Notes: generated by a model not told the origin, from the sequence alone. Numbered from the stretch's first letter, positions 13,683 to 63,991 are shown. The stretch is DNA of 64,000 bases from an uncultured bacterium (GCA_964422745.1 CAYRCK010000001.1:100368-164367); one strand, 5' to 3'. Program-made: numbers and translations.

Positions 13683-15795
13683 TCCCCTGCTCCGGGCTCC
13701 TTCCGCTCTGCGCCTGCGCCACCAGCAGCTCTACCACCAGAATCAATGCCGCCGCCAGGAACAGGGGCAGAGAGATCTCCCTACCCTCCCTGACCTGCCT
13801 GACCGCCGAGGCCAGCTCCACGCCGTCCGCGAAAACGGCATAGCTATCCAGGCCCAGCAGTCCCGCCGCTTCATCGCACTCAACTGGTTCTATTTCAGAT
13901 TCCAGCCTGCAGTCGGGATTCACGGCCATCCTCCCGAGCGTATCCGCCCCCGAATAGATCGTCACGAATCCCGGTTCCTCCACGCCGCGGATGATAACGT
14001 CCCCCGGCTCCATGCCGTGCCTCTCCTGCGCTTGGGGCCTCATCACGCTCCCTGAGGGGAGCATGCAAAGGACGCCGCCGCCGTCCCTCCCCCTCCAGGT
14101 GAGAGCGTCACCCACCAGCCTTCCCTCTCCCGCCTGACGCTCGTGCACCGCCGCAAGCAGCGACTGCTGAACGACCGGGAGAAAATAGGGCGATAGCAAT
14201 AGATCCCCGGCCTCCGGGACAGGGTCGACAGCCGCGAACACCACCATCCCCTCCCCGCGCCGCTCGCGCCATAAAAACGGGGTGCCGGTCCCGAACCCGA
14301 GCAATACCGCATCCGCAGGAACGCCGCGCACCACGGCGTAGCTTCTAAATCTGAGCTCCTTCAGGCCGACGATATCGTCTTCATCGAAAGGTGAAAACAC
14401 CCCGCTCCTGTCATTTATCGTCCTTACCGTCACGAACCCTTCCTGCATCTTCCTGAAGGATACATCCGGATCGAACGCGCTCAATCCGCCGATAGCCCCG
14501 ATGTGCTCCGGAAGGACCAGGACGAGAACCCTGCCTCCCGAGATAATGAAGCGCTCCACGAGCTCGATATCACTCCGCTGCAACGATCCTCCAGGCCCCA
14601 GAACAAGCGCATCCATCCCCGCCAGATCACTGGAGGTGAATTCGGCCCACCTCGTCCTCCAAAGCTCGATGTCCCCCTCGGAGCCTCGGGGACTCAACGC
14701 CTGCTCCAGGTAGAACCCGGAATCGTCCGTAACGAGGAGCGTTCTCGTTCTGCCCGTCACGTGCATCGTGAAGTACCTTCTGTCATCCGCGGCCAGCCTG
14801 TCCCCGCCCTTCCTTACCTCACCCACCGGCCAGCCGGAACGTTCCGCCGAAAATGTGATTTTCTCCGTGGAGGCAACACCGGGAGCAAGCTCCATCCCCT
14901 TCTCCACGATCCTTCGGCCATCCACGAACACGAGCAGGGGGAAGGACGCTCGCAGCTCGGTGGATGTGTTTCTGAGTCTCACTTCAATGGTGATTATCTC
15001 ACCCGTATGCAGGGCTACCCTAGGTGTAAGCACGGATTCGACGGCGACGTTGGAATTCTCCGCGGGGCTGACAGGCAGCAGAAAGGCCTTCACCGATGCC
15101 GGCTCGCCTACGGACTCCCCCCTCCCGCGCTCCGTAGGATCCGGCACCGCATCGTCTCCCGAAACCCCTCCCCGCCCTCCGATCGCCGTCCTCTGAAAGT
15201 CGGATATGATGAACAGCTCCTTTACCTCTCGCCTGCTCTCACCTAGCACCGCTATCCCCGTTTCCACCGCGGAACGCAGATCCGTTCCCCTCCAAGACGG
15301 CTCGAGCCCCATAACCGTGCCCTGCGCCACTCCCCGCTCCAGCCTCGATCCGCCGTAAACCGTCTCGCACCCTGTGTCGAAAAGCACTATGGTAACCTCA
15401 TCATCACCGTCGAGGTTGTCCATCACATCCGAGCACCTGGATTTGGCCCTTTCGAACAAGCTCCCATGGTCCCCCTCCATCCTCATACTGTAGCTTCGAT
15501 CGATGAGAACGCATGCCGCACGCGATCCGCCGGGAGGGAAAAGCGCCGCAAGCCCCCCCCTGACTACCGGCCTGGAGAAGGCCAGCGCCGCCATCGCGAT
15601 CGCCGCGCATCTGAGCGCGAGGAGCAGCAGCCTCTGCATGCTCACCCTTCTCATGCTTCTCTTCGTGGAGCGCTTCAGGAACCTGAGCGTGCTGAAATGC
15701 ACGTCGGGAACGCGCCGGCGGCTGAACAGGTGTATTATCAGCGGGACACCAACGGCTGCCAGAGATACGAGGAATGCCGGATTCAGAAAATCCAT
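13672..15795 (-). CDS. BatA-like membrane protein: N-terminal double-TM anchor, VWA domain, large C-terminal region
   Basis: The N-terminus MDFLNPAFLVSLAAVGVPLIIHLFSRRRV plus a second TM matches the aerotolerance-type double-transmembrane anchor. A VWA/MIDAS-like segment follows (ACVLIDRSYSMRMEGDHGSLFERAK...VTIVLFDTG). It overlaps the mfd start by 11 nt and follows a MoxR and a DUF58 gene. Confidence 0.65.
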   Translation of the reverse strand: MDFLNPAFLVSLAAVGVPLIIHLFSRRRVPDVHFSTLRFLKRSTKRSMRRVSMQRLLLLALRCAAIAMAALAFSRPVVRGGLAALFPPGGSRAACVLIDRSYSMRMEGDHGSLFERAKSRCSDVMDNLDGDDEVTIVLFDTGCETVYGGSRLERGVAQGTVMGLEPSWRGTDLRSAVETGIAVLGESRREVKELFIISDFQRTAIGGRGGVSGDDAVPDPTERGRGESVGEPASVKAFLLPVSPAENSNVAVESVLTPRVALHTGEIITIEVRLRNTSTELRASFPLLVFVDGRRIVEKGMELAPGVASTEKITFSAERSGWPVGEVRKGGDRLAADDRRYFTMHVTGRTRTLLVTDDSGFYLEQALSPRGSEGDIELWRTRWAEFTSSDLAGMDALVLGPGGSLQRSDIELVERFIISGGRVLVLVLPEHIGAIGGLSAFDPDVSFRKMQEGFVTVRTINDRSGVFSPFDEDDIVGLKELRFRSYAVVRGVPADAVLLGFGTGTPFLWRERRGEGMVVFAAVDPVPEAGDLLLSPYFLPVVQQSLLAAVHERQAGEGRLVGDALTWRGRDGGGVLCMLPSGSVMRPQAQERHGMEPGDVIIRGVEEPGFVTIYSGADTLGRMAVNPDCRLESEIEPVECDEAAGLLGLDSYAVFADGVELASAVRQVREGREISLPLFLAAALILVVELLVAQAQSGRSPEQGNVG

Positions 15796-37246: not shown

Positions 37247-38656
37247 TTGGTTGTATCTGTGGATGAAAACAAAGATACGCATATCGGCCTCACGGTCGAA
37301 GACAAGGCGGAAGGCGTGAGGCTCGATCATGTTTGGTCCAATATATTGGACAGGATAAGCGGCCTGGTAACGCCGCAGAGCTTTCAAACGTGGTTCAAGC
37401 CCACCCGTCTCGTGTCCTACGAGGACTCGCAGCTCGTCGTGGAGGGCCCAAACCCCTTTTTCATCGACTGGCTGTCAGAGCACCATGTGAAGAAGATCAA
37501 GTCCGCGGCCAGAGACATACTCGGAGAGGACGTCTCCATCGAGTTCATCTCATCCCCCCTGCTTCCACGTGTTTCTGCGCCCGCGGAGAATTCAAAGAGG
37601 TCCATCCTCGTCAAGGAACCCGTCACCCTTCCCAACAGGGTCCAGCTCAACTCGCGATACACCTTCGACGAGTTTGTCGTCGGGGGCGGCAACAGGCTCG
37701 CTACCGCGGCGGCTATGGCTGTCGCGGAAAAGCCCGCCCAGGTCTACAATCCCCTGTTCATATACGGAGGGGTCGGCCTGGGAAAAACCCACCTTCTCCA
37801 GGCGATCGGCCATGCGGTCCTTCGGGCCCATCCATCAATGCACATTTCCTACGTATCCACCGAGAGCTTCATGAACGAGCTCATACAGGCGATACGCACC
37901 GGCATCACCCTCGAATTCAAGGAGCGCTACCGAAACACTGACATTCTGCTGATCGACGATATCCAGTTCCTCGCCGGCAAGGAGAGCACCCAGGAGGAAT
38001 TCTTCTTCACGTTCAACTCTCTTCACGATGCAAACAAACAGATAGTCGTCACCAGCGATTGTCCGCCCAAGCAGATCCCTACGCTTCAGGAACGCCTTAC
38101 ATCCCGCTTCGAATGGGGTTTGATCACGGACATACAGGCACCGGACATCGAGACCCGCATCGCCATCCTCAGAAAGAAAGTGGAGAAGGAGCATATACAG
38201 ATCCCTGATAGCGTGATCCAGGTCATCGCCGAGAACGTCAAGAACAATATACGTGAGCTGGAGGGTTCATTGGTCAGGATCCTCGCATGCTCCAGCCTCA
38301 CGTGTCAGGATATAAACGTAGACATGGCTCTGGACGTTCTCAAGGATCTGATAAAGGAACCCGGCAAGAAGAGTCTCAACGTTCGTTCAATCCAGAAGTC
38401 CGTTTCTCAGCACTTTGATATACCCCTCGACAGCCTCAAGGCTAAAACGCGCATCAAGACCGTCGTTGTCGCCAGGCAGGCGGCTATTTACCTGTGCAGA
38501 GAGCTTACCGACCTTTCATTGGTCCAGATCGGAAAACGTTTCGGCGGAAGGGATCACAGCACCGTTCTTCATGCCATAAAGAAGATAGAATCGTTGCTGG
38601 ACAGCGATCCATCGATAAGACAAAAGATCGACTCCATAAGGGAAAGTGTTTCCTGA
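37247..38656 (+). CDS. dnaA: chromosomal replication initiator protein DnaA (true start probably GTG ~37316)
   Basis: AAA+ Walker A (GGVGLGKTHLLQAIG), Walker B (LLIDDIQFL), sensor motifs, and the C-terminal DNA-binding domain (LSLVQIGKRFGGRDHSTVLHA). The longest ORF includes DnaA boxes, so the start is probably downstream (~446 aa from 37316). Confidence 0.95.
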   Translation: MVVSVDENKDTHIGLTVEDKAEGVRLDHVWSNILDRISGLVTPQSFQTWFKPTRLVSYEDSQLVVEGPNPFFIDWLSEHHVKKIKSAARDILGEDVSIEFISSPLLPRVSAPAENSKRSILVKEPVTLPNRVQLNSRYTFDEFVVGGGNRLATAAAMAVAEKPAQVYNPLFIYGGVGLGKTHLLQAIGHAVLRAHPSMHISYVSTESFMNELIQAIRTGITLEFKERYRNTDILLIDDIQFLAGKESTQEEFFFTFNSLHDANKQIVVTSDCPPKQIPTLQERLTSRFEWGLITDIQAPDIETRIAILRKKVEKEHIQIPDSVIQVIAENVKNNIRELEGSLVRILACSSLTCQDINVDMALDVLKDLIKEPGKKSLNVRSIQKSVSQHFDIPLDSLKAKTRIKTVVVARQAAIYLCRELTDLSLVQIGKRFGGRDHSTVLHAIKKIESLLDSDPSIRQKIDSIRESVS

Positions 38657-52511: not shown

Positions 52512-54674
52512 TTGAGGGGGAAAGGAAAGACTCAAACGAGAGAAGAGGACAAAAAGGGAAGGCCTCCACCGGGAGAGAAGCTCGGTGCACAAAGCACCAG
52601 GCATATCCTTCGAAGAGTCCTCGGTAGCGGGAGTTTGGACGAAGGGCTGGAAGAAGCATCAAAATACCTCCTCGAGCTTTTCGATCTGAGATTGGTCAGC
52701 ATTTTAGTGGCCGGTAGCGGGGACATAGGCTACACGGTCAGATCTTTTATCACGCCGGACGACAAACTACACTACCTTCAAGGGGCGTCCTACAGGTATG
52801 GCAACTCGGGAGACGTGGACGGTTTCCTGGGGAAGGTTTTCTCTTCGTCTGATCCGACGACTGTTTCCAAGCGCAGGATTAGATCTCTCCTCATTTCTCT
52901 TGCCGGCGACGGCGTGGTGTCCGAGGAGACATTCGACGAACTGACTCGCAGGCTTATAACCTCAGACGATCTCAACGTCGTGTTCTTCTCGGAGAGGGAC
53001 AGTAGGGCCGAGCCTTTTCTCCTGCTGGCGGTTTCGAGCCCGAGGGAGTTGCTCGACGACGAGATAGGCCTGCTGGCGGAAATCACAGGCTCGCTGGCCC
53101 TATCCGTGGAGTGCAGGATCAGGATGATGGACCAGGACCGCTTGGTAAGCAAGTATGAGGCGCTCCTTGAAAGCAGGGAGAAGGCTCATTTCCTTTTGGT
53201 GGGGGGGAAGCTGGAAGTATATACAGAAAGGTTACCGGAGATGCTCGGAGTTTCGGGCGAGGATTTGCGGGGCATGAGGCTCGAGGATTACCTGGAGAGG
53301 TCGGACGGCAGGGATCTTCACAGGATGATAGAGTCGTTCATAGAAGAAGGCGAGAGCCATTCAAGCAGCTATTATCACGTTTACCGCCTTGCGCGCGGCG
53401 CAAGGGAGGTAGAGGTGAGCCTGAATTCGGTTCGGGTAAGGGACGGGTGGGGGATAAAGGGCTCTATAGCAGCTCTTGATGATAAGAACTTGCTGGAAAA
53501 GAGCGCGCTCGACAGCAAGAGCATGGAGAACATCTCGGCCCTTGCAGGCGGCGTCGCCCACGATTTCAATAATCTGATCGGCGCCATGGTAGGATATGCA
53601 TCGCTCGTCAGAAACTCCATGGAGGAGAATGACGAGAGGGTTGGGCAGCTAAGGAGGATTGAGGAGGCGGGAGAAAGGGCTCATAAGCTTACTAGACAGC
53701 TGCTTTCGATATCACGCAAGGGGAAATACAGGCAGGAGGTCGTCGATATGGGGGATATCCTCGACCGCGTATGCAAGAGCTGCATAGTCCCCATGGACCA
53801 CATATCCTGTATAAAGGAGTACAACACAGAGCTGATGAATGTGGAGGGTGATCCGACCCAGCTGTATGAAGCGCTTCTCAATATAGCGAAGAATGCCAGG
53901 GAGTCGATGCCGGATGGGGGGGTGGTCAACCTACGGGTCGACGGCGTTGAGCTGGATCGTGACAGCTCCCTGTTCACGGAAGGGATGAAAGCGGGGGGGT
54001 ACTTGAGGATAAGCGTGAAGGACGGCGGGTGCGGAATGGGAAGCGATGTCCTGAGAAAGAGCACGGAGCTGTTCTTCACGACGAAGCAAGAGGCCGGCAA
54101 GAAGGGGTTGGGGCTGCCCGCGGCGATCGGGATTATTGAAAGCCACAGGGGGGTGCTGGAGGTCAAGAGCCGCCGGGGAACAGGATCGGAGGTTTTGATA
54201 TACCTGCCGGTCACTCGGAGGGAGCCCGAATCTACAGCAACATTCACGCCGCGTGGTGACACGAAGGTGAATAAGGTGCTCGTGGTCGACGATGAGCAGA
54301 TCGTATGTGAACTCGCCTCGGATATGCTGGGCCGGCTGGGGTACGACGCGGTGACCGCGCTATCGGGCAACGAGGCGCTGGAAGCGATGAGGAACTCGCG
54401 GTTCGACCTGGTATTGCTTGATCTCCTGATGCCCGAGATGAACGGTCAGGAGACTTTCCACCGACTGAAAGAAATCGATCCTGATATTCCGGTAATACTT
54501 TCCAGCGGGTACAGCGAAGATTCCGTCGTCCAGAGGCTTCTCGAAGAGGGCGCCATCTCGATGCTCAAGAAGCCCTACCGACTCGCTGACCTGAAAGTAG
54601 CTCTGGATGAGTCTGCAAGAACCATAGGCCGTTTGACAGGAGGGGATAGTGGCCATGGAAACAAAAGGCTCTAA
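52512..54674 (+). CDS. cytoplasmic hybrid sensor histidine kinase (GAF/PAS-like N-terminal domains, HisKA, HATPase_c, REC)
   Basis: H-box (LAGGVAHDFNNLIGAMVGYASL), ATPase N/G boxes (NIAKNARESM; GGCGMG; GLGLPAAIGII) and a C-terminal receiver (KVLVVDDEQIV...LLDLLMPEMNG...ISMLKKP). The start is uncertain. Confidence 0.8.
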   Translation: MRGKGKTQTREEDKKGRPPPGEKLGAQSTRHILRRVLGSGSLDEGLEEASKYLLELFDLRLVSILVAGSGDIGYTVRSFITPDDKLHYLQGASYRYGNSGDVDGFLGKVFSSSDPTTVSKRRIRSLLISLAGDGVVSEETFDELTRRLITSDDLNVVFFSERDSRAEPFLLLAVSSPRELLDDEIGLLAEITGSLALSVECRIRMMDQDRLVSKYEALLESREKAHFLLVGGKLEVYTERLPEMLGVSGEDLRGMRLEDYLERSDGRDLHRMIESFIEEGESHSSSYYHVYRLARGAREVEVSLNSVRVRDGWGIKGSIAALDDKNLLEKSALDSKSMENISALAGGVAHDFNNLIGAMVGYASLVRNSMEENDERVGQLRRIEEAGERAHKLTRQLLSISRKGKYRQEVVDMGDILDRVCKSCIVPMDHISCIKEYNTELMNVEGDPTQLYEALLNIAKNARESMPDGGVVNLRVDGVELDRDSSLFTEGMKAGGYLRISVKDGGCGMGSDVLRKSTELFFTTKQEAGKKGLGLPAAIGIIESHRGVLEVKSRRGTGSEVLIYLPVTRREPESTATFTPRGDTKVNKVLVVDDEQIVCELASDMLGRLGYDAVTALSGNEALEAMRNSRFDLVLLDLLMPEMNGQETFHRLKEIDPDIPVILSSGYSEDSVVQRLLEEGAISMLKKPYRLADLKVALDESARTIGRLTGGDSGHGNKRL

Positions 54675-56223
54675 TGATCACCCCGATCCTCACCTCCAAG
54701 AGGTGGGTGAGTACGGGAACGGCGAGGATCTACAAAAAACAATCAACTGCATCATGGAGAATAATGTAGTAGGCATAGCCGTTTCGGACGTGGGCGGAGT
54801 GTACAAATCGTTCAACCTCGGAGCGGAGCAGCTTACCGGCTACAGCAGAGGAGAGATTGTGGGAAAGGATCCGCCACCGGCCATCTTCCTGGAAGAGGAC
54901 ACATCGGCCATAAACAAGGCGCTGGCTCTTCAGGGACATGTCGAGAATATGGAGGTGCGTCTGAAGAGGAGGGACGGCGGTCTCAGGGAGGTAAGCCTGA
55001 GCGTGTCCTCGTGCGCCAACGGATGCGAGTATATACAGTTCATCATAGACAACACCGAGAAGAAGCACCTGCAGAGTCTTCTGCTGCATTCACAGAAGAT
55101 GGAGGTCGTCGGCGAAATGGCCGGCGGCATAGCACACGATTTCAACAATCTGCTGGAGGGTATCCTCGGATACACGACATTCATGATGGATATGATCGAG
55201 AGTGGCAACGAGCTCAGGTCCTATCTCGAGATCGTTGAGAGATCGGCCAAGAAGGCCTCCGACCTGACAGAGAGGCTTCTCACGTTTTCACGTGACGAGG
55301 GCAAGGTCAGTAGTCTCGTCAATTGCAATACGCTGCTTCGGGAAGTCGTCAAGCTTCTCGAGAGAACCATAGACAGGAGGATCGTGATAGAGGTGAAGCT
55401 GGAGAAAAACCTTAATGCGATCCGCGGGGCGGCCGGTCAGATCGAACAGGCGTTTTTGAATGCTTGCCTGAACGCGCGTGATGCGATGTCGGAAGGCGGG
55501 AAGCTGTATATATCGAGCGAGAACGTCGTCCTTGATAAGAGCTATCCTCCCTTGAGCCTTAACATGGGCAGCGGGAAATACGTTCGCGTGTCGGTAACCG
55601 ATACGGGCGTGGGCATGGACAAGGAAACGCAGAACAGGATGTTCGAGCCATTCTTCACGACGAAGAAACGCGGTGAGGGAACGGGACTGGGGCTGAATAT
55701 GGTATACGGGATAGTGCACAACCACGGTGGATTCATAAACGTGTACAGCGAAATCGGCAAGGGGACCGTTTTCAACATCTATATACCCGCACATGACGAC
55801 CGGGCGCCGGAGGATGTCGTGGAGAGGGAGTGGCAGGAAGTTCCAGCCGGCAAAGGAGAGAAGATCCTTGTTATAGACGACGAGCCGATTGTAAGGGACC
55901 TCAGCATGGAAATGCTCGAAAAGCTTGGTTACAAGGCTATAGTGGCCGGGGACGCGGATGATGGGATGCGTAAGTTCAAGGAGCAGAAAGACGATATCGA
56001 GCTCGTGGTCCTGGATATTATCCTTCCGGGCGCCAGCGGGCATGAGGTGTTCAAACGGATGAGGGAGATTAAGAGCGACACACTTGTTCTTCTGTCGAGC
56101 GGCTACAACAGGGCGTTCGTGGGAGAGGAGTTCATAAACGGCTCACAGATCGATTTCATACAGAAGCCCTATTCGATGGAGGACCTCGCCAGGGAAGTCA
56201 GACGCATTCTGGACCGCAAATGA
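54649..56223 (+). CDS. hybrid sensor histidine kinase (PAS, HisKA, HATPase_c, REC)
   Basis: PAS-like N-terminus, H-box (MAGGIAHDFNNLLEGILGYTTF), N/G boxes (NACLNARDAM; DTGVGMD; GLGLNMVYGIV) and a receiver (KILVIDDEPIV...VLDIILPGASG). It overlaps the previous gene's end by 26 nt. Confidence 0.85.
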   Translation: MAMETKGSNDHPDPHLQEVGEYGNGEDLQKTINCIMENNVVGIAVSDVGGVYKSFNLGAEQLTGYSRGEIVGKDPPPAIFLEEDTSAINKALALQGHVENMEVRLKRRDGGLREVSLSVSSCANGCEYIQFIIDNTEKKHLQSLLLHSQKMEVVGEMAGGIAHDFNNLLEGILGYTTFMMDMIESGNELRSYLEIVERSAKKASDLTERLLTFSRDEGKVSSLVNCNTLLREVVKLLERTIDRRIVIEVKLEKNLNAIRGAAGQIEQAFLNACLNARDAMSEGGKLYISSENVVLDKSYPPLSLNMGSGKYVRVSVTDTGVGMDKETQNRMFEPFFTTKKRGEGTGLGLNMVYGIVHNHGGFINVYSEIGKGTVFNIYIPAHDDRAPEDVVEREWQEVPAGKGEKILVIDDEPIVRDLSMEMLEKLGYKAIVAGDADDGMRKFKEQKDDIELVVLDIILPGASGHEVFKRMREIKSDTLVLLSSGYNRAFVGEEFINGSQIDFIQKPYSMEDLAREVRRILDRK

Positions 56224-56278
56224 GGGCGGGCCGGACCTGCGAAGATTCTTACCGAGAGTGAAAGGCAGGGAAGAGGAT

Positions 56279-57958
56279 ATGTTTAGATTGCAATTGCTGT
56301 GTATATTTTTTTGTCTTGCCGCAGCGTGCAGCGGAAGGTGCGGGGAGGGAAAGAAGGAGCGGAGTGATATTGATTTGGGGGACCGCCTGGAGGTTTTCGT
56401 GCCGGTGCAGATAACGGTACCCTGGGACCTGCTCGATGAGCGCGATGAGGCGGCGCTGGAGAAATTGTATCTCGCCGCCAGGGTAATTGACCGGATTTTC
56501 CTGGAGCAGGTGTCGGCGGAGAACATCGATCTGAAGATGAAGCTGGAGAGGCAGGGCGATCCCGACGCCATGAGGTTCTTCCGGATTAACTTCGGACCCT
56601 GGGACAGGCTGGAGGGCAACGAGCCGGTTATAGGGGATGCGGAGAAACCCGCAGGGGCGAATTTCTATCCCGCCGATATGACTGCGGCCGAGTTCGAAGA
56701 TTGGGTAGAGAGCCACCCGGACGATAAAGCTTCTTTCGAGAGCTGGTTCACGGTAATAAGAAGAAGGGACGACGGCGGGCTCTATTCGGTTCCCTATTCA
56801 CGTCAGTACCGGGAACTGCTCGGTAAGGCCGCCGGATATCTCAGGGAAGCAGCCGATCTCGTGTCGAGCGTAACTTTGGCCGGTTTCCTGCGGGAGAGGG
56901 CTGATGCGTTTTCGTCCAACGACTACTTCGAGAGCGATATGGCGTGGATGGATGTCAAGGACAACGTTCTGGATGTGACAATAGGGCCGTACGAGGTTTA
57001 CGAGGATGAGCTGTTTAATTACAAGGCGGCTTTCGAGGCCTTTATCTGTGTGCGGGATCCCGCTGAGAGCCGGAGGCTTGACGACCTGAAAGGCCGCCTG
57101 ATGGATATGGAGGGGAACCTGCCGATAGATGATAAGCACAAGAACCTGAACAGGGGGTTCGAATCCCCGATATCCGTAGTGGACGAGGTGTTCGCCGGTG
57201 GTGACACGAAAGCGGGTGTGCAGACACTGGCTTTCAACCTTCCGAACGATGAGCGGGTGCGCGAGGCCAAGGGAAGCAAAAAGGTGATGTTGAGAAACAT
57301 CTGCAGGGCGAAGTTCGACAAGATCCTGGAGCCGATATCGGACCGCCTCATCTCACCCGGGCAGCGGCGGCATGTGACATTCGAGGCCTACTTCAACCAC
57401 ATACTGCTGCACGAGTTCTCACACGGGCTTGGTCCGGGCAGGATCGTGCTCGAGGATGGAACGGAAACGCTGGTGAACAGAGCACTCCGTGAAACGTACT
57501 CCGCCATCGAGGAGGCGAAAGCAGATGTTGTCGGGCAGCACAATTTTTATTATCTTATAGATGAGGAGTTTTATCCCCACCTGCTGGAAAAGGAGACGGC
57601 AGTGACGTTTTTGGCAGGTTTCTTCCGCTCCGTCAGATTCGGCATCGGGGAGGCCCACGGCCTGGCCAATATGATTGCCTTCAATTACTTCAGGGAAAAG
57701 CGAGCTTATGTCCAGGATGCATCCGACGGGAGGTGGGCGGTTGACTTCGACCGGATCAGGGGCGCCGTGGAGGATCTGTCACACGAGCTGCTCATGCTCC
57801 AGGCCCTCGGTGATTACGATGGATCGAAGAGGTTTATCGAGCGGTATGGGAAGATGGACGACGTTGTGAGGGAGTCCATATCCCGCATCGAGGATGTTCC
57901 GATCGATATAGAACCGAGATACGAGCTTGACGAGAGATACGCGGGGGTGAGGCAGTAG
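56279..57958 (+). CDS. secreted/lipoprotein Zn-metallopeptidase-like protein (HExxH plus downstream EExxAD; M49/DPP-III-like)
   Basis: I chose the ATG at 56279, giving the lipoprotein signal MFRLQLLCIFFCLAAACSG. The motifs are HEFSHGLG, and about 32 aa later EEAKADVVG. The family assignment is tentative. Confidence 0.4.
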   Translation: MFRLQLLCIFFCLAAACSGRCGEGKKERSDIDLGDRLEVFVPVQITVPWDLLDERDEAALEKLYLAARVIDRIFLEQVSAENIDLKMKLERQGDPDAMRFFRINFGPWDRLEGNEPVIGDAEKPAGANFYPADMTAAEFEDWVESHPDDKASFESWFTVIRRRDDGGLYSVPYSRQYRELLGKAAGYLREAADLVSSVTLAGFLRERADAFSSNDYFESDMAWMDVKDNVLDVTIGPYEVYEDELFNYKAAFEAFICVRDPAESRRLDDLKGRLMDMEGNLPIDDKHKNLNRGFESPISVVDEVFAGGDTKAGVQTLAFNLPNDERVREAKGSKKVMLRNICRAKFDKILEPISDRLISPGQRRHVTFEAYFNHILLHEFSHGLGPGRIVLEDGTETLVNRALRETYSAIEEAKADVVGQHNFYYLIDEEFYPHLLEKETAVTFLAGFFRSVRFGIGEAHGLANMIAFNYFREKRAYVQDASDGRWAVDFDRIRGAVEDLSHELLMLQALGDYDGSKRFIERYGKMDDVVRESISRIEDVPIDIEPRYELDERYAGVRQ

Positions 57959-58229: not shown

Positions 58230-59243
58230 TCAGCCCCGCGGGATCTCGAGAACCCCTGCACCCGAAATTCCGCTCTCCCTTATGATCAGCAGCGCCTCGT
58301 TGACTTCCCCGAGAGGGAAGAGTGTGGTCTCTGTTCGTATGGGTATATCAGCGGCGAGATTCACAAGCTCCCGCCCGTCCCGCCTTGTCGCTGCGGTCAC
58401 GCTTCTCAGATTCTTCTCGTAGTACAGGTGCGTTTCATAGTCGAGCCCGGGGATGGGTGTCATCGTTATACCCGCGAGGGCCAATGTTCCTCCCTTCGCG
58501 AGTGAGGCCAGCGCATCGGGAACTATCCCTCCGGCGGGGGCGAAGACGATCGAGCTGGATGGCATTTCCGGCGGTGTGTCCTTCGATGTGCCGGTCCAGT
58601 ACGCGCCGAGCTTCTCTGCGTGTGCCATGTGGTTTTTGCTCCTGGTGAAAACGAGCACCCGGCACCCCCAGTGAACGGCGATCTGGATTGCCACGTGCGC
58701 GCTCGCGCCGAATCCATAGAGACCAAGCGTCCCCCCGGGTTCTATGCCGCTGATCTTCAGGGCCCTGTAACCTATGATACCCGCGCACAACAGAGGTGCG
58801 GCCTCCCTGTCCGCGAAGCCTTCCGGCAGTGGGTAGACGAATGATGCGGGGAGGACGGCGAACTGAGCGTAACCCCCATGCTCGTGGTACCCGGTGAATC
58901 GGGCCTTCTCGCATAAATTCTCGCTGCCGGATACACAGTGAGCGCATTCTCCGCAGGTCGAGTACAACCAGGCGGCCCCAACCCTGTCGCCCGGTGCCGG
59001 TTCGGTGACTCCGGGACCGGTCCTCTCGACCCGGCCGACTATCTGGTGACCGGGTATCACCGGGAGCACCGGGAGGGCGAGGTCGCCCTCCACCGTATGG
59101 ATGTCGGTGTGGCAGAGGCCGCACATGGATACGCGAACCAATATTTCACCGCTTTTCGGCTCCGGCACGGGAAGGTCCACAGGTTCGAGAGGTTTATGCT
59201 CCAGGGGTCGTGGAGCGTTCAGAATCATCGCCTTCATAACCAT
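58230..59243 (-). CDS. zinc-dependent alcohol dehydrogenase (MDR superfamily, AdhP-like)
   Basis: Catalytic Zn ligands (GLCHTDIH), structural Zn cysteines (CGECAHCVSGSENLC) and Rossmann motif GLYGFGASAH. Confidence 0.85.
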   Translation of the reverse strand: MVMKAMILNAPRPLEHKPLEPVDLPVPEPKSGEILVRVSMCGLCHTDIHTVEGDLALPVLPVIPGHQIVGRVERTGPGVTEPAPGDRVGAAWLYSTCGECAHCVSGSENLCEKARFTGYHEHGGYAQFAVLPASFVYPLPEGFADREAAPLLCAGIIGYRALKISGIEPGGTLGLYGFGASAHVAIQIAVHWGCRVLVFTRSKNHMAHAEKLGAYWTGTSKDTPPEMPSSSIVFAPAGGIVPDALASLAKGGTLALAGITMTPIPGLDYETHLYYEKNLRSVTAATRRDGRELVNLAADIPIRTETTLFPLGEVNEALLIIRESGISGAGVLEIPRG

Positions 59244-59426
59244 CGATCCCCGTTTTTATTGCCACCGCCCCACGCCATGATGCGGGAGCGGCGATCCGGC
59301 CCTATGGGAACCGGAATGTGCCGTATATGGGCAGTCCGATTCTCGAGCCCCCGGGAAAAGGACTTTTCTTATTTGAAACTCTACTATAAACTGCTCTATT
59401 TGAATAGGCAAGAATCAAGGATGTAA

Positions 59427-60086
59427 TTGGAGGGAGAGATAATGGAGCAATTCCTGAAGGACTGTGCGCAGTCGGTGATAGAAGGAGATGGAGAGAGATC
59501 GAAGGAGCTGGCCAGTGAAGCACTGGATAGGAAGCTTCCTCTGCTCGACGTTATCGAGAATGGCTTTGCCGATGGAATAAGGGAGGTCGGGCGCTTGTGG
59601 GAGGAGGGGACGATGTTTCTTCCGGAGCTTGTCATGGGCGCTGAATCGATGAAAGCCGCCATGGATGTGCTCGAGCCCGCGCTCAAGGGGAGCGGAGTAA
59701 ATCAGGGAGTGGCCGGGCGTATCGTCATAGGGACGATCGAGGGGGACATACACGATATAGGCAAGACGCTGGTGGCGACGTTGCTCGCGGCCAACGGATT
59801 CGAGGTGACCGACCTGGGGGCGGATGTTCCCGTGACGAGGTTCGTCGATGAGGCGAGCGAAAGGGAAGCTGGCTGTGTCGCCGTATCCGCGCTTCTCACC
59901 ACCACGATGGTCGGGCAAAAGAAGGTGGTAGAAGAGATAAAGAAGCGGTCACTCACGGGCAAGTTGAAGGTTATGATCGGCGGGGCTCCGTGCAGCGACG
60001 AATGGGCCAGCCAGATCGGCGCCGACGGGTATGCCGGAGACGCCGTGGCAGCCGTTGCGCTCGCCAGGAAGCTGTCCGAGTCCTAG
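59427..60086 (+). CDS. corrinoid (cobalamin-binding) protein of a methyltransferase system
   Basis: B12-binding_2 cap plus a Rossmann B12 domain with DxHxxG (GDIHDIGKT), SxL (VSALLTT) and GG (MIGGAP) motifs. Confidence 0.85.
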   Translation: MEGEIMEQFLKDCAQSVIEGDGERSKELASEALDRKLPLLDVIENGFADGIREVGRLWEEGTMFLPELVMGAESMKAAMDVLEPALKGSGVNQGVAGRIVIGTIEGDIHDIGKTLVATLLAANGFEVTDLGADVPVTRFVDEASEREAGCVAVSALLTTTMVGQKKVVEEIKKRSLTGKLKVMIGGAPCSDEWASQIGADGYAGDAVAAVALARKLSES

Positions 60087-60113
60087 CTGGTGCGGACTGA
60101 CGGAGAATGACAT

Positions 60114-61016
60114 ATGGGAAATAATTTGATGGACGCCGTCGGCCGGAGGGTAATCCTGTTCGATGGAGGAATGGGGAGCATGCTGATATCCAGAGGGCTC
60201 AGGGAGGGAGACGTCCCCGAATCCTGGAATTTCTCCCGGGGCGACGACCTCATCGAGATACACAGGGCCTACCTCGAGTCCGGGGCCGAGGTGATACAGG
60301 CGAATACATTCGGCGCGAACCGGATAAAGCTCTCCTCCTCGAGGCAGGGGAGCGGGATCGACGTGGGTGAAGCGAACGAGCGGGCCGTAGGCCTGGCGAG
60401 AAGGGCGCTGGAGGAACACGGCGAGCCTGATCGGTTTCTTGCCGGTGACATCGGACCGACGGGGATGTTCTTCGAGCCCGTGGGGAAATTGGAGGCGAAA
60501 GACGCCAGGGACGCATTCAGGGAGCAGGCCTCGGCTCTTGAAAGGGCCGGAGTCGATCTCTTTCTCATCGAGACGATGTACGATCTTCGAGAGGCGGTCG
60601 AGGCTCTGGGGGCCGTAAGGGATGTTTCCGATAAACCCGTGGTGGTTGAGCTCACTTTCGAGAAAAAACCGCGGGGCTACTATACGATGTTCGGGGATAC
60701 GCCACGCAAGGGCGCAGAGGTGCTCCTGGAGAACGGAGCGGATATGATAGGGGCGAACTGCACGGTCTCGAGCGCCGATATGATCGGTCTTGCCGTGGAG
60801 TTCAGAGGCTTTACGGAAGCTCCGTTGATATTCCAGCCGAACGCCGGGCGCCCGGAGATGGAGGGAGGCTCCGCGGTTTACAGGCAGACACCCGAGGAAT
60901 TCGTTGCAGATATGGCCGGGATAGTGAATGCCGGTGCGGACGCCGTGGGCGGGTGCTGCGGCACGACACCGGAGTTTATCAGCGAGCTCCACGGGTATCT
61001 GGCCGGCGACCGGTGA
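60114..61016 (+). CDS. homocysteine S-methyltransferase-domain protein (MetH Hcy-binding module homolog, stand-alone)
   Basis: PF02574-type TIM barrel: ILFDGGMGSML; EVIQANTFGAN; Zn-thiolate ligands C in IGANCT and CC in GGCCGTTPEF. Confidence 0.8.
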   Translation: MGNNLMDAVGRRVILFDGGMGSMLISRGLREGDVPESWNFSRGDDLIEIHRAYLESGAEVIQANTFGANRIKLSSSRQGSGIDVGEANERAVGLARRALEEHGEPDRFLAGDIGPTGMFFEPVGKLEAKDARDAFREQASALERAGVDLFLIETMYDLREAVEALGAVRDVSDKPVVVELTFEKKPRGYYTMFGDTPRKGAEVLLENGADMIGANCTVSSADMIGLAVEFRGFTEAPLIFQPNAGRPEMEGGSAVYRQTPEEFVADMAGIVNAGADAVGGCCGTTPEFISELHGYLAGDR

Positions 61017-61029
61017 TGGAGGAAAGCGC

Positions 61030-61677
61030 GTGACCGAGATAGTTGTAAGCGAAGGGTTCGAGGTCGGTATAAGCCGCTCCGAGGTGTTGAGGATGCTCGG
61101 GATCAAACTCGGCTCCGGCAAAGAAGAGGGCGAAAGGCTCAGGAGAGTGGTCGACTCGTCGCTGCAAATCGCGCGGGGGCTCATGCGGACAGCGGGCTTG
61201 TACCGTTTCGTGCCAGGCGTCGATTACCCGGTCAGAGGCATGTTCGACGAGCTGGAAAGGATGGCGTTTTGCATATGCACCATCGGGCCCGACCTGGAAA
61301 ACGAAGTTACGGCGCTCGCAAACAGCGGCAAGCTTCTAGAGTCCGTCGTATTGGATTCGGTAGGGTCTGTGGCTGCGGATTCGGCGGCGGACTATATGGA
61401 AGGTGAGATAAGCGGTGAAGCGGCGGAGGCGGGCCTCAGGATCTCCTGCCGGGCCAGCCCGGGATACGGGGACTGGGACATCAAGGGGCAGGCGGGCATA
61501 TTCGAGGTCCTTCCGGGAAAGAGGATAGGTGTAGAGCTTAAGGCGAGTTTCATGATGATTCCAAGGAAGTCGGTATCCTTCGCCGTCGACGTGTCGAAGA
61601 ATCCGGCCAGGATGCGAAGTGAGAACTCGTGCCGTAACTGCGGCAGGCTGGACTGCATATATAAAAAGGACACTTGA
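61030..61677 (+). CDS. MetH reactivation-domain-like protein (AdoMet-binding activation module) with C-terminal Cys motif
   Basis: GTG start with RBS GGAGG. RASPGYGDWDIKGQ aligns with the E. coli MetH activation-domain motif RPAPGYPACPEHTEK. The C-terminus carries CRNCGRLDC. Confidence 0.55.
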   Translation: MTEIVVSEGFEVGISRSEVLRMLGIKLGSGKEEGERLRRVVDSSLQIARGLMRTAGLYRFVPGVDYPVRGMFDELERMAFCICTIGPDLENEVTALANSGKLLESVVLDSVGSVAADSAADYMEGEISGEAAEAGLRISCRASPGYGDWDIKGQAGIFEVLPGKRIGVELKASFMMIPRKSVSFAVDVSKNPARMRSENSCRNCGRLDCIYKKDT

Positions 61678-61809
61678 CGGGGAGAGTGATCTACAACCCC
61701 CTCGGGGCCGGTGGTTACTCGAAGTGTTTCGGGGGCTGCGGGCGGCCGCGCCCATGTCGTGCGCGGGGCGAGCGAAACGGATACTTCTCAAGGAAAGGTG
61801 GAGCGGCAG

Positions 61810-63285
61810 ATGAGCATCAATCCAAGAGTCGGCTGGTTCGGTGAGAAGGACAGGGAGAGGATCGTGGACGAGGCGGTCAAGATCCTCGAGGATGTGGGAG
61901 TGTTTGTCGAGAACGACGAGGCGCTTTCTCTTCTAGACGGTGCGGGTGCTCGTGTGGACGCGAAAAAGGGGAGGGTTATGATCGACGGGTCCTTGGTGAG
62001 GAAGGCGCTCGAAACCGCACCACGGAGGATCATCGTATACGACAGGCATGGCGAGCCGGCCATGGACCTGGGGGAGGACCGTATTCATTTCAATCCGGGA
62101 TCGGCGGCGCTGAGGATATTCGACAGGGCCGGCGGGAGGGCTCGGACTCCCCGGACGGAAGACCTCGTCAAGTTCTCCACGCTGATCGATGCCCTTCCGA
62201 ACTACGCGGCCCAGAGCACCGGCGTGATCCCTGCAGATGTGCACGAGGATATCGCAGACCGTTACAGGTTGTATATAGCGCTGCAGTATTCGGTGAAGCC
62301 CATCGTCACCGGGACGTTCAAGGTGGATGCATTCCGGGTGATGCACGAGATGCTCTCCGCCGTGGCCGGTGACCAGGACATGCTGCGGGAGAAACCCATG
62401 GCTATATTCGACTGCTGCCCATCGCCGCCCCTCAAATGGAGCGATCTTACGGCGCAGGCGCTCATAGACTGCGCAAGGACGGGGATTCCGGCGGAATTGG
62501 TTTCGATGCCTCTCACGGGGGCGACTTCACCGGTTACTCTCGCCGGGGCGGTAACACAGCACTGCGCGGAGAACCTCAGCGGGATAGTGATCCACCAGCT
62601 GGCATCGGCCGGGGCGCCGATCATCTACGGAGGCTCTCCGGCGTGTTTCGACATGAGGAAGGGAACTACGCCGATGGGAGCCGTGGAAACGCAGATGATA
62701 GACGGGGCATACGCGGAGATCGGGAAGCATCTAGGGATGCCGACTCACGCGTACATGGGGCTCAGTGATTCGAAGACCGTTGATTATCAGGCGGGGATGG
62801 AGAGCGCCATGGGGGCCGCGATCGCCGCGCTCAGCGGTGTCAACAACGTCTCCGGCCCCGGCATGCTCGATTTCGAATCCTGCCAGAGCCTCGAGAAGCT
62901 GGTGCTGGACCACGAAGTGTGCGGGATGGCCCTGCGCCTGGCATCCGGGATAGAGCTCAGGGATGATCCGATAGCCCTGCCGTTGATAAGCGAGGCGCTC
63001 GAGAAGAAGGAGTTCCTGTCGCTCCCGCATACGGCCAGGTGGTTCCGCAAGGAGGCATATTTCCCCGATGCTGTTATTGACCGTGACACCCTGGAGGAAT
63101 GGGAGAGTAAGGGGGGGCGTGATGCTGCCGAAAGAGCGTCGCGGCGTGTCGAGAGCATACTGGACGGGCATACGCCCGAGCCGCTGGACGAGGATGTAAG
63201 GGCCTTCATAGAGGGATTGATGGAGAAGGAAGCCGCCCGGGTAGGAATGGCCGGACTGCCGGCCGTCGAAGGGTCGTCCGGGTGA
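61810..63285 (+). CDS. MttB-superfamily methyltransferase, non-pyrrolysine type (candidate quaternary-amine:corrinoid methyltransferase)
   Basis: I chose the ATG at 61810 (RBS AAAGGTGGAG). The 491-aa ORF is uninterrupted, with no in-frame TAG, and shows MttB-family conservation across its length (VGWFGEKDRERIVDEAVKILEDVG...FDCCPSPPLKW...IYGGSPACFDM...). Confidence 0.8.
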   Translation: MSINPRVGWFGEKDRERIVDEAVKILEDVGVFVENDEALSLLDGAGARVDAKKGRVMIDGSLVRKALETAPRRIIVYDRHGEPAMDLGEDRIHFNPGSAALRIFDRAGGRARTPRTEDLVKFSTLIDALPNYAAQSTGVIPADVHEDIADRYRLYIALQYSVKPIVTGTFKVDAFRVMHEMLSAVAGDQDMLREKPMAIFDCCPSPPLKWSDLTAQALIDCARTGIPAELVSMPLTGATSPVTLAGAVTQHCAENLSGIVIHQLASAGAPIIYGGSPACFDMRKGTTPMGAVETQMIDGAYAEIGKHLGMPTHAYMGLSDSKTVDYQAGMESAMGAAIAALSGVNNVSGPGMLDFESCQSLEKLVLDHEVCGMALRLASGIELRDDPIALPLISEALEKKEFLSLPHTARWFRKEAYFPDAVIDRDTLEEWESKGGRDAAERASRRVESILDGHTPEPLDEDVRAFIEGLMEKEAARVGMAGLPAVEGSSG

Positions 63286-63295
63286 GAGGGCGTGT

Positions 63296-63991
63296 TTGAT
63301 CTTGGGACGCGGGGATCCCGCCGGCGTGACGGAGATGAAGGAAAGATATTTTACACCCGGCAGCATCCGTGAAAAGGCGATGCGCATGATCGGGGAGCTG
63401 CCAGCCAGCTGCCGAGGCCGGTCCCCGTACTTCGATCCGGCCAGATCCGCTCTGCTCGTTCTGGATATGCAAAGGTATTTCTTGGACGAGGGCTCCCACG
63501 CCTATGTGCCGAGCGCGAGGACGGTCGTCCCGGGGATCAGGAGGCTGTCGGAGGCTTTCATCGGCATCGGAAGGCCGGTGATAACCACACGCCATCTCAA
63601 CACGGAGTCCGACGCCGGGATGATGGCGGTATGGTGGAAGGATCTCATTGCCGAGGGGCAGGAGCGGAGTGAGATCATCGATGAGCTCGCCATCGAGGGA
63701 GCACATGTTATCGTCAAATCCCAGTACGATGCCTTCCACGGCGGAGCGTTGGAAGGGATCCTGGCGGACAGCGGTACGGAGCAGGTCGTGATAACGGGTG
63801 TGTTGACGCATCTCTGTTGCGAGACTACGGCCAGGAGCGGATTTGTCATGGGGTATTCCATATTTCTGGCGGTTGACGGGACCGCGACGTATAATGAGGC
63901 CTTTCACCGTGCATCCCTTCTGAACCTCTCTCATGGATTCGCCGTTCCTATGCTCGTGGGGGATCTTATCGGGCGTATCGGGGGGCGTTAG
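63296..63991 (+). CDS. isochorismatase-family cysteine hydrolase
   Basis: ALLVLDMQRYF (catalytic Asp), K in VIVKSQYDAF, and the Cys nucleophile context VVITGVLTHLCCETTARSG. Confidence 0.8.
   Translation: MILGRGDPAGVTEMKERYFTPGSIREKAMRMIGELPASCRGRSPYFDPARSALLVLDMQRYFLDEGSHAYVPSARTVVPGIRRLSEAFIGIGRPVITTRHLNTESDAGMMAVWWKDLIAEGQERSEIIDELAIEGAHVIVKSQYDAFHGGALEGILADSGTEQVVITGVLTHLCCETTARSGFVMGYSIFLAVDGTATYNEAFHRASLLNLSHGFAVPMLVGDLIGRIGGR

Follow-up and report, generated by a model that had tools for sequence, protein, structure and literature searches.

A four-gene cluster of corrinoid protein, homocysteine domain, reactivation-domain homolog and MttB-family methyltransferase as a candidate methionine synthase lacking the folate module

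Introduction

Four adjacent genes in a 64 kb window (the whole stretch of DNA analyzed here, from an uncultured bacterium that is Krumholzibacteriota-like by synteny and best matches) raise the question of whether they form a single methyl-transfer system, and which donor and acceptor such a system would use. An earlier note on this DNA had treated the cluster as novel on the grounds that MttB systems pair with MtrH-type acceptors and RamA. That view is outdated. A four-gene 'methionine synthase' cluster of this kind is described in Ca. Electryoneota and diverse bacteria by Williams et al. (2022, Environ Microbiol, PMC9324843), who put forward that it makes methionine through a corrinoid, with an unknown compound as methyl donor. 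Furthermore, genetic work by Mausz et al. (2025, PNAS, PMC12478193) established that one corrinoid protein serves both the MttB-family enzyme MtgB and a PF02574 homocysteine module; the hosts of this MtgBCDE system are Ruegeria pomeroyi, Phaeobacter inhibens, and Sinorhizobium meliloti, and the split MetH of Price et al. is cited in the same paper. The cluster and the idea of a methionine relay are already known (Williams et al., 2022). New here are a separate MttB clade, the replacement of its betaine pocket, a dedicated family of activation proteins, and the invariant C-terminal CxxCxxxxC motif of that family.

Results

Organization and conservation of the cluster

Gene calling placed four co-directional genes on the + strand between 59442 and 63285, separated by 27, 13, and 132 bp. 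The features of the region are as follows.

59244-59441, +, intergenic region 5' of the cluster, presumed promoter and ribosome-binding-site region
59442-60086, +, gene 1 (214 aa), corrinoid (B12-binding) protein, MttC/MtgC-like, of the type cognate to methylamine methyltransferases
60114-61016, +, gene 2 (300 aa), stand-alone MetH-type homocysteine-binding Zn methyltransferase domain, putative methylcorrinoid:homocysteine methyltransferase
61030-61677, +, gene 3 (215 aa), stand-alone homolog of the MetH reactivation (AdoMet-binding) domain, TM0269-like, with a C-terminal CxxCxxxxC tail
61810-63285, +, gene 4 (491 aa), non-pyrrolysine MttB-superfamily methyltransferase, putative substrate:corrinoid methyltransferase
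63296-63991, +, isochorismatase-family hydrolase (231 aa; PF00857, 118.8 bits)

The start at 59427 given in the earlier note corresponds to an upstream TTG; the ATG at 59442 is preceded by a GGAGGG ribosome-binding site. A divergent ADH gene upstream of the cluster ends at 59243. Only weak consensus promoter-like matches were found between this gene and the cluster, and the RNA fold z-score of the same intergenic region was not significant (-1.14). Rfam gave no match upstream of the cluster, even when the cut-off was relaxed from the gathering threshold to E<=1, and thus revealed no SAM/B12 riboswitch or other methionine-linked regulatory signal there. The isochorismatase-family gene lies co-directionally 10 bp downstream of the MttB gene. 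This arrangement was confined to Krumholzibacteriota-type loci and was absent from locus L007 and from other phyla; the gene extends the operon in one lineage only, and may or may not take part in the relay.

Among 80 related loci, 45 had the full order of corrinoid protein, homocysteine domain, activation protein, and MttB-family enzyme, and a further nine, several of them at contig ends, had the last three genes in this order. The MttB gene adjoined the activation gene in 72 of the 80 loci, and overlaps between start and stop codons were frequent. These loci were distributed over Krumholzibacteriota, Zixibacteria, Eisenbacteria, Ignavibacteria, Gemmatimonadota, WOR-3, Glassbacteria, Acidobacteriota, and Heimdall/Promethearchaeati (Asgard) archaea. 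Since the same four-gene order recurs in 45 loci across phyla, the cluster is not a product of chance, and its retention in so many phyla strengthens the relay reading. A subclade from Eubacteriales and Aminicenantes encoded the corrinoid protein, the activation protein, and the MttB-family enzyme without the homocysteine gene, which indicates that this trio does not always feed homocysteine.

Corrinoid protein and homocysteine domain

The earlier note had described gene 1 as a corrinoid protein with DxHxxG/SxL/GG motifs and gene 2 as a stand-alone PF02574 domain with intact Zn ligands (C...CC), and both descriptions held. Gene 1 matched PF02607 (77.7 bits) and PF02310 (89.6 bits), and its motifs (D102-x-H104-x-x-G107, S149-x-L151, and G180-G181) were kept in 62-63 of 63 orthologs. 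The NCBIfam models for MtgC (211.9 bits) and pyl_corrinoid (208.9 bits) scored below their own cut-offs. The top PDB match was Methanosarcina barkeri MttC (7XCN_M; 160.9 bits), compared with 106 bits for the B12 domain of MetH. By sequence, gene 1 carries the MetH-type B12 cap and Rossmann motifs, yet is nearer to MttC/MtgC.

Gene 2 matched PF02574 with 206.5 bits. Its residues D17 and E153, together with the Zn-binding C216, C281, and C282, correspond to those of Escherichia coli MetH and were invariant in all 56 orthologs, as were the MetH motifs DGGMG(S/T), NTFGA, and ET. A grouping of gene 2 with BHMT, named in the earlier note as a contrary outcome, was not observed: the top PDB match, the homocysteine domain of Thermotoga maritima MetH, scored 155 bits, versus 49-52 bits for BHMT and 46 bits for the SMM-type HMT. 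On these scores we rejected a direct betaine:homocysteine methyltransferase of the BHMT type. A corrinoid-free enzyme of that type was also rejected, as corrinoid and reactivation genes flank the homocysteine gene in at least 45 loci.

Reactivation-domain protein

The third gene had been likened to the AdoMet-dependent reactivation domain of MetH on the basis of its RASPGYGDW segment, with an additional CxxCxxxxC motif. A Pfam search gave part of the answer: PF02965 reached 20.3 bits, below the 25-bit cut-off, and the assignment came instead from fold and profile comparisons. In the AlphaFold2 model of gene 3 (pLDDT 91.4), the best 19 PDB matches found by Foldseek were all MetH reactivation domains, led by T. 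maritima TM0269 (1J6R; TM 0.72/0.78), to which gene 3 was also related by sequence (E=5e-4). Alignment with residues 897-1227 of E. coli MetH by hhalign gave a probability of 86% and aligned the RxxxGY motif, and orthologs of gene 3 had precomputed PF02965 matches. Because the fold matches, the hhalign result, and the ortholog matches agree, we assigned gene 3 to the MetH reactivation domains despite its sub-threshold PF02965 score. By homology and predicted structure, it is a homolog of the AdoMet-binding reactivation domain of MetH and is predicted to bind AdoMet.

The motifs of gene 3 are R141-A-S-P-G145-Y146-G-D-W and C201-x-x-C204-x-x-x-x-C209. Among its orthologs, R141, G145, Y146, C201, C204, and C209 were invariant, and C83 was nearly so. 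TM0269 is likewise a separate reactivation protein (about 214 aa) with the same fold and an (R)xSPGYGD motif, and T. maritima MetH is reported to need it in order to be reactivated (Huang et al., 2007, cited in PMC7857596). However, TM0269 is without the C-terminal CxxCxxxxC tail and serves a MetH (TM0268) equipped with a folate module, whereas the gene 3 family adjoins MttB-clade genes in the 72 loci mentioned above. As a family, these activation proteins are dedicated partners of the MttB clade to which gene 4 belongs.

MttB-superfamily methyltransferase and its donor

Gene 4 is an uninterrupted, non-pyrrolysine member of the MttB superfamily, as had been proposed. It matched PF06253 with 308.9 bits (cut-off 25) over profile positions 3-496 of 500, and carries Leu at the pyrrolysine position. 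Its identity to Desulfitobacterium hafniense MtgB (2QNE/9YCE; 209 bits, 29.8%) and M. barkeri MttB (7XCL; 208 bits) was about 30%. The MttBs linked to activation genes formed a clade of their own, separate from MtgB and MttB, with members 47-82% identical to gene 4. Trimethylamine methyltransferase MttB proper was rejected as an identity for gene 4 on account of the missing in-frame UAG, the Leu at the pyrrolysine position, and a TIGR02369 score of 398.5 bits, below the equivalog cut-off of 525.

The candidate donors in the earlier note included glycine betaine, carnitine, and proline betaine. Glycine betaine is bound in MtgB by the experimentally validated residues Y97, R312, H348, and F356, and the Arg is conserved in all characterized enzymes acting on acidic quaternary amines (PMC13080624). 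In the alignment, these four positions are occupied by S, H, S, and E in gene 4; across 65 clade members they were S, H or Q, S (64 of 65, with one X), and E (62 of 65). With all four residues replaced and an identity of only 29.8%, MtgB was rejected as an identity for gene 4. The replacement of the whole tetrad, including the Arg, suggests that the donor of this clade is probably neither glycine betaine nor another acidic quaternary amine, which makes the three betaines named above improbable.

Comparison with known systems

The cluster of Williams et al. (2022, PMC9324843), as described there, resembles the present one in consisting of a non-Pyl MttB/MtgB homolog, a homocysteine S-methyltransferase, a corrinoid protein, and an AdoMet-binding activation protein; its MttB homolog likewise falls in an uncharacterized clade apart from MtgB and MttB, so that the two clusters match by description. 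The hosts differ, the present window being Krumholzibacteriota-like. The cluster description in that paper is at the level of annotation and does not include the replaced betaine pocket, the C-terminal cysteines of the activation protein, variants without the homocysteine gene, or archaeal members.

Around one shared corrinoid, MtgBCDE brings together a PF06253 methyltransferase and separately encoded corrinoid and PF02574 proteins, as does the present cluster, and ties amine demethylation to methionine synthesis. It differs in its pterin-binding MtgD, which is essential to both functions, in reactivation by RamA and DUF1638, in the action of MtgB on glycine betaine, in its aerobic hosts, and in an mtgE that is usually unlinked. 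In contrast, the present cluster has no pterin module, a MetH-type AdoMet reactivation protein, a linked homocysteine gene, and a non-betaine pocket. The glycine betaine:THF system of D. hafniense (MtgB/MtgC/MtgA) and the Eubacterium limosum enzymes MtcB, MtpB, MtyB, and MthB also combine a non-Pyl MttB-superfamily MT1 with an MttC/MtgC-type corrinoid protein. However, these systems use THF as acceptor through a methylcorrinoid:THF methyltransferase and are reactivated by RamA, whereas the present acceptor is a homocysteine domain and the MT1, about 30% identical to MtgB, lacks Y97/R312/H348/F356.

Discussion

The earlier note had proposed a corrinoid relay from a methyl donor to homocysteine with AdoMet-type repair, and this is the best-supported reading, on which the modules, the motifs, and the order conserved in 45 of 80 loci agree. 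Judging from sequence, the four genes would constitute a disassembled cobalamin-dependent methyl relay, and we consider it reasonably probable that this relay is a methionine synthase free of the folate module. A chimeric origin, seen in the combination of an MttC/MtgC-like corrinoid protein with a MetH-like homocysteine domain, fits such a relay. Gene 4 would methylate the corrinoid of gene 1, in its Co(I) state, at the expense of a small methylated donor; this is probably an N-methyl compound, and glycine betaine and other acidic quaternary amines are improbable. The Zn/homocysteine domain of gene 2 would then pass the methyl group from CH3-Co(III) to homocysteine, yielding methionine and Co(I). 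Corrinoid oxidized to Co(II) would be repaired by gene 3 through AdoMet-dependent reductive methylation with an external low-potential electron donor, and the conserved Cys tail of gene 3 may bind a metal and serve in docking or in the entry of electrons. We infer all three steps from homology together with the conservation of catalytic motifs and of gene order.

Methionine formation without methyl-THF, as proposed in the earlier note, is not established; an ordinary MetH accompanies the cluster in MAGs reported in Williams et al. (2022, PMC9324843). Within the 64 kb window, seeds from E. coli MetH (residues 354-649) and from the PF00809 gene of L084, a related locus from Clostridia, matched no homolog of the pterin-binding module. 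PF00809, RamA, and MetE were absent from the Pfam-annotated called genes of the window, and PF00809, RamA, and DUF1638 from the window together with 7 kb of downstream flank. An MtgD-like pterin-binding partner or RamA may be encoded outside the window. Such a partner is the core of an MtgBCDE-type dual system, in which the corrinoid protein of gene 1 would be common to the MttB enzyme and an MtgD-like protein encoded elsewhere, methionine would derive from methyl-THF, and the MttB enzyme would mainly feed the folate pool. Genetics in Ruegeria, where neither methionine synthesis nor glycine betaine use can do without MtgC and MtgD and where the genes are scattered with mtgE often unlinked (Mausz et al., 2025, PMC12478193), favors this arrangement, as does L084 with its PF00809 gene inside the cluster. 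However, L084 is the only one of the 80 related loci with a pterin module within 8 kb; the other 79 have none, and the homocysteine module is tightly linked, the reverse of Ruegeria, where mtgBC is accompanied by mtgD but not by mtgE. The present reactivation protein is moreover of the AdoMet type rather than RamA/DUF1638, and with PF00809 missing from the window annotations we regard a dual system as unlikely.

The acceptor and the role of gene 4 could also be read differently. The thiols or selenols used differ among Zn thiol methyltransferases, PF02574 members included, and the same relay might therefore methylate another thiol (a cofactor thiol, sulfide, or methanethiol) in a demethylation or detoxification route, consistent with the lack of methionine-linked regulatory elements upstream in the Rfam search. 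The best matches of gene 2 are nevertheless MetH homocysteine domains, its MetH motifs and Zn triad are invariant in 56 orthologs, and its partner reactivation domain is of a kind specific to methionine synthase, leaving only a small chance for another thiol. It is very improbable that the MttB-clade protein, instead of demethylating amines, replaces the pterin module as a TIM barrel with a methylated pterin (methyl-THF or a methanopterin-like carrier) as its ligand, making the cluster an ordinary split MetH: all characterized PF06253 members use N-methyl amines, and gene 4 matches PF06253 and TIGR02369 end to end and has no sequence similarity to PF00809.

The lack of a methionine-linked regulatory element upstream in the Rfam search, the Pfam score of gene 3 below threshold, and the subclade without the homocysteine gene count against the relay.

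A more far-reaching form of the folate-module-free relay is a tentative possibility. The cluster might represent a folate-independent B12 methionine synthase, widespread among uncultured bacterial phyla and Asgard archaea, that uses a donor on which no characterized MttB-family enzyme acts (a non-acidic methylated amine or another class) through the invariant Glu/His/Ser pocket, together with a reactivation subunit whose Cys-ligated metal or Fe-S site takes electrons directly. If true, direct electron entry through a Cys-ligated site would amount to a form of repair that is known neither from MttB systems nor from MetH.

Composition of the cluster

Four co-directional genes were found at positions 59442-63285 of the window, spanning 3.8 kb with gaps of 27, 13, and 132 bp:

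59442-60086, + strand: gene 1, corrinoid protein, 214 aa; PF02607 and PF02310 (B12-binding cap and Rossmann domains)
60114-61016, + strand: gene 2, stand-alone homocysteine S-methyltransferase domain, 300 aa; PF02574, 206.5 bits
61030-61677, + strand: gene 3, MetH activation-domain homolog, 215 aa; PF02965, weak (20.3 bits against a cut-off of 25), over the RxxxGY region
61810-63285, + strand: gene 4, full-length uninterrupted MttB-superfamily protein, 491 aa; PF06253, 308.9 bits

The earlier note on this DNA had placed the cluster at 59427-63285. Its end was retained, whereas 59427 corresponds to an upstream TTG, and the called start of gene 1 was the ATG at 59442, which is preceded by a GGAGGG ribosome-binding site. 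The four products had been read as a corrinoid protein with the DxHxxG/SxL/GG B12 motifs, a stand-alone PF02574 domain with intact Zn ligands, a protein resembling the MetH reactivation domain with a CxxCxxxxC ending, and an uninterrupted non-pyrrolysine MttB-superfamily member, and the domain, motif, and structural data agreed with each of these identities.

The gene 1 motifs D102-x-H104-x-x-G107, S149-x-L151, and G180-G181 were kept in 62-63 of 63 collected orthologs, and the closest solved relative of this protein was the trimethylamine corrinoid protein MttC (160.9 bits; MetH B12 domain, 106 bits). In gene 2, the Zn ligands C216, C281, and C282, together with D17 and E153, were invariant in 56 orthologs, and the MetH motifs DGGMG(S/T), NTFGA, and ET were present. 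Its score was 155 bits against the homocysteine domain of Thermotoga maritima MetH, 52 bits against BHMT, and 46 bits against an S-methylmethionine-type enzyme; therefore, gene 2 is of the MetH type, and its assignment as a BHMT-type direct transferase, which the earlier note had raised as a counter-reading, was rejected. Gene 4 shared approximately 30% identity with D. hafniense MtgB and likewise with M. barkeri MttB, and Leu occupied the pyrrolysine position of MttB. In a JGI contig of the same species (L002:4315-5789), the MttB gene was called as two pieces of 124 and 353 aa, owing to the deletion of a single base compared with the window sequence. Pyrrolysine or recoding was rejected as the cause of this split because there was no in-frame stop, and the deletion reflects either faulty assembly or an uncommon variant.

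Gene 3 fell below the threshold of Pfam alone, but structural and profile comparisons supported the assignment. The 19 best PDB matches of its AlphaFold2 model (mean pLDDT 91.4; family alignment of 69 sequences) were all MetH reactivation domains, with TM0269, a stand-alone MetH reactivation protein of T. maritima (PDB ID: 1J6R), at the top (TM 0.72/0.78). Profile comparison with residues 897-1227 of E. coli MetH gave a probability of 86% and aligned R-A-S-P-G-Y to R-P-A-P-G-Y. Gene 3 therefore does match the MetH activation domain, and its product would be expected to bind AdoMet.

The C-terminus of gene 3 (61630-61677) carried an additional motif, S-C-x-x-C-x-x-x-x-C-x-Y-R, which was absent from TM0269 and MetH. 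C201, C204, and C209 were invariant, and C83, elsewhere in the protein, was nearly so. This tail may form a Zn or Fe-S site, the model being only moderately confident in this region (pLDDT 60-73).

Conservation and variation among related loci

With window sequences and E. coli MetH as seeds, we annotated 80 related loci. These loci were derived from Krumholzibacteriota, Zixibacteria, Eisenbacteria, Ignavibacteria, Gemmatimonadota, WOR-3, Glassbacteria, Acidobacteriota, Aminicenantes, Clostridia, Dehalococcoidia, and Heimdall/Promethearchaeati archaea. The gene 3 family comprised 313 database proteins, and its relatives were distributed over at least 215 species genomes. The order corrinoid protein, homocysteine domain, activation protein, and MttB was observed in 45 of the 80 loci, and the last three genes of this series in a further 9, several of them at contig ends; an MttB gene adjoined the activation gene in 72/80. 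The MttB proteins linked to activation genes formed a single clade, whose members shared 47-82% identity with the window protein, compared with approximately 30% with MtgB and MttB. The recurrent gene order and the single MttB clade mark the cluster as a conserved functional module rather than a chance adjacency. Members of the gene 3 family are dedicated to this MttB clade rather than to MetH.

Two variants of the cluster were found. A subclade from Eubacteriales and Aminicenantes (loci L058, L059, L061, L064, L070-L073, L077, L085, and L087) lacked a homocysteine gene and carried those for the corrinoid protein, the activation protein, and MttB; in L073, they formed a three-gene unit bordered by opposite-strand genes. 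A pterin module was present in 1 of the 80 loci, the clostridial L084, where a PF00809 gene lay within the cluster in place of the homocysteine gene. On the basis of these variants, the same MttB clade seems to feed different acceptors. The Cys tail of gene 3 occurred in 56 of the 60 loci that also held the homocysteine gene and was missing from the subclade lacking it, which is weak evidence that the two are tied, because about one evolutionary event would account for the pattern.

A pterin-binding homolog was not detected anywhere in the 64 kb window with either E. coli MetH residues 354-649 or a related-locus PF00809 protein as a seed, in line with the absence of this module from the cluster noted earlier. 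Likewise, when the genes of the window and of a 7 kb downstream flank were annotated one by one with Pfam, no PF00809, RamA, DUF1638, or MetE appeared.

Donor pocket of the MttB-clade enzyme

The residues of MtgB that hold glycine betaine (Y97, R312, H348, and F356) have been defined by mutagenesis and a substrate-bound structure, and R312 has been reported to be conserved in all characterized members, all of which use acidic quaternary amines (PMC13080624). At these four sites, gene 4 had Ser, His, Ser, and Glu, and nearly all of 65 clade members had Ser, His or Gln, Ser, and Glu, in an alignment at approximately 30% identity in which flanking motifs anchored every site. Because the tetrad is replaced and R312 is otherwise conserved, the donor is probably not glycine betaine, carnitine, proline betaine, or gamma-butyrobetaine. 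Glycine betaine was accordingly rejected as unlikely, and the first three of these compounds, which had been named as candidates from relatives of gene 4, are disfavored. The replaced pocket narrows the search for the methyl donor.

All-against-all clustering of flanking ORFs in the 80 loci yielded no conserved transporter or regulator hinting at the substrate; beyond the four core genes, only lineage-specific synteny was obtained.

Comparison with published systems

The central idea of the earlier note has a published precedent. Williams et al. (2022; PMC9324843) reported a non-pyrrolysine MttB/MtgB homolog from Ca. Electryoneota that is clustered with homologs of three MetH modules (homocysteine-binding, cobalamin-binding, and AdoMet-activation), found the cluster in diverse bacteria, placed the MttB homolog in an uncharacterized clade, and hypothesized a novel corrinoid-dependent methionine synthesis with an unknown methyl donor; their MAGs also encode ordinary MetH. 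Our literature search found no paper testing the four-gene cluster experimentally. The window cluster is a new, Krumholzibacteriota-like example of a cluster type described earlier and never characterized, and the concept itself is not new.

In Ruegeria pomeroyi, proteomics and knock-outs showed that the MttB-family MtgB, corrinoid MtgC, pterin-binding MtgD, and PF02574 protein MtgE are connected via a shared corrinoid, with reactivation by RamA and DUF1638 (Mausz et al., 2025; PMC12478193). The window cluster differs from this system in that it has no pterin module, carries a MetH-type repair protein instead of RamA and DUF1638, has a tightly linked homocysteine gene and a donor pocket that is not betaine-type, and encodes a corrinoid protein of the anaerobe MttC/MtgC type.

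Proposed reaction and alternatives

Judged from sequence relationships, the system is a chimera, in which the donor enzyme and corrinoid protein are of methylamine-methyltransferase origin and the acceptor and repair modules of MetH origin. The best-supported reading is a plausible three-step relay. The MttB-clade enzyme would methylate the Co(I) corrinoid protein with a methyl group from a small methylated donor, the Zn/homocysteine domain would pass this group to homocysteine to yield methionine, and corrinoid oxidized to Co(II) would be repaired by the TM0269-like protein through AdoMet-dependent reductive methylation. The relay to homocysteine proposed in the earlier note is retained as plausible, with its module identities, whereas the betaine-type donor is not.

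Other arrangements are less likely. In one, a pterin-binding partner encoded elsewhere would give a dual system of the MtgBCDE type; against this stand the consistent lack of PF00809 around the cluster and the close linkage of the homocysteine gene. In another, the Zn domain would methylate a thiol other than homocysteine, but the MetH-type motifs of gene 2 argue otherwise. The MttB-clade protein could also bind methyl-pterin, a reading whose one point in favor is the shared TIM-barrel fold.

With homocysteine as the acceptor, flux would be confined to the methionine/AdoMet cycle, which would fit an anabolic enzyme with MetH-style repair better than a catabolic one with ATP-driven RamA. If the relay works in this way, an environmental methylated compound could be the direct source of the methyl group of methionine, and hence of AdoMet, in many uncultured anaerobes and some Asgard archaea; methyl-THF would be bypassed, a B12-dependent route would join the folate-independent methionine synthases, and the genome-based reading of methionine prototrophy and B12 demand would change. 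The compact layout of the cluster, with every catalytic motif intact, would allow the relay to be tested directly, either by reconstitution or through complementation of E. coli metE metH.

Regulatory signals and genomic surroundings

A riboswitch or leader RNA was rejected for the region upstream of the cluster and for the 132-bp gap before the MttB gene, where Rfam searches were empty at the gathering threshold and at E<=1 and the fold z-scores were +1.45 and -1.14 (the latter upstream of the cluster). Promoter and terminator scans gave weak consensus matches only, and terminator-like sites were fewer than in shuffles.

The closest relatives of the window have flanking genes in common with Krumholzibacteriota MAGs, namely those for an M49 peptidase, an alcohol dehydrogenase, and an isochorismatase-family hydrolase, so that the source probably belongs to this lineage. 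In Krumholzibacteriota-type loci, the operon runs on by three genes (window 63296-63991, continued in the related locus L001 at 13881-15760) for an isochorismatase-family hydrolase, a thioredoxin-reductase-like flavoprotein without CxxC, and a distant RlmN/Cfr-like radical SAM protein with CPVECRIC; this trio, which might supply electrons or process the substrate, was kept in approximately 15 related loci and absent in other phyla. Upstream, positions 52512-57958 encode two hybrid histidine kinase/response regulators (52512-54674 and 54649-56223) and an M49-family peptidase (56258-57958), all syntenic with the cluster in the related loci L004 and L005. Farther away, positions 25100-46300 constitute the chromosomal replication origin region, with rnpA, yidC, jag, mnmE, mnmG, rsmG, parA, and parB on the minus strand and dnaA (37247-38656), dnaN, recF, gyrB, and gyrA on the plus strand; the GC skew changes sign at 38-40 kb, where the GC content falls to 0.475.
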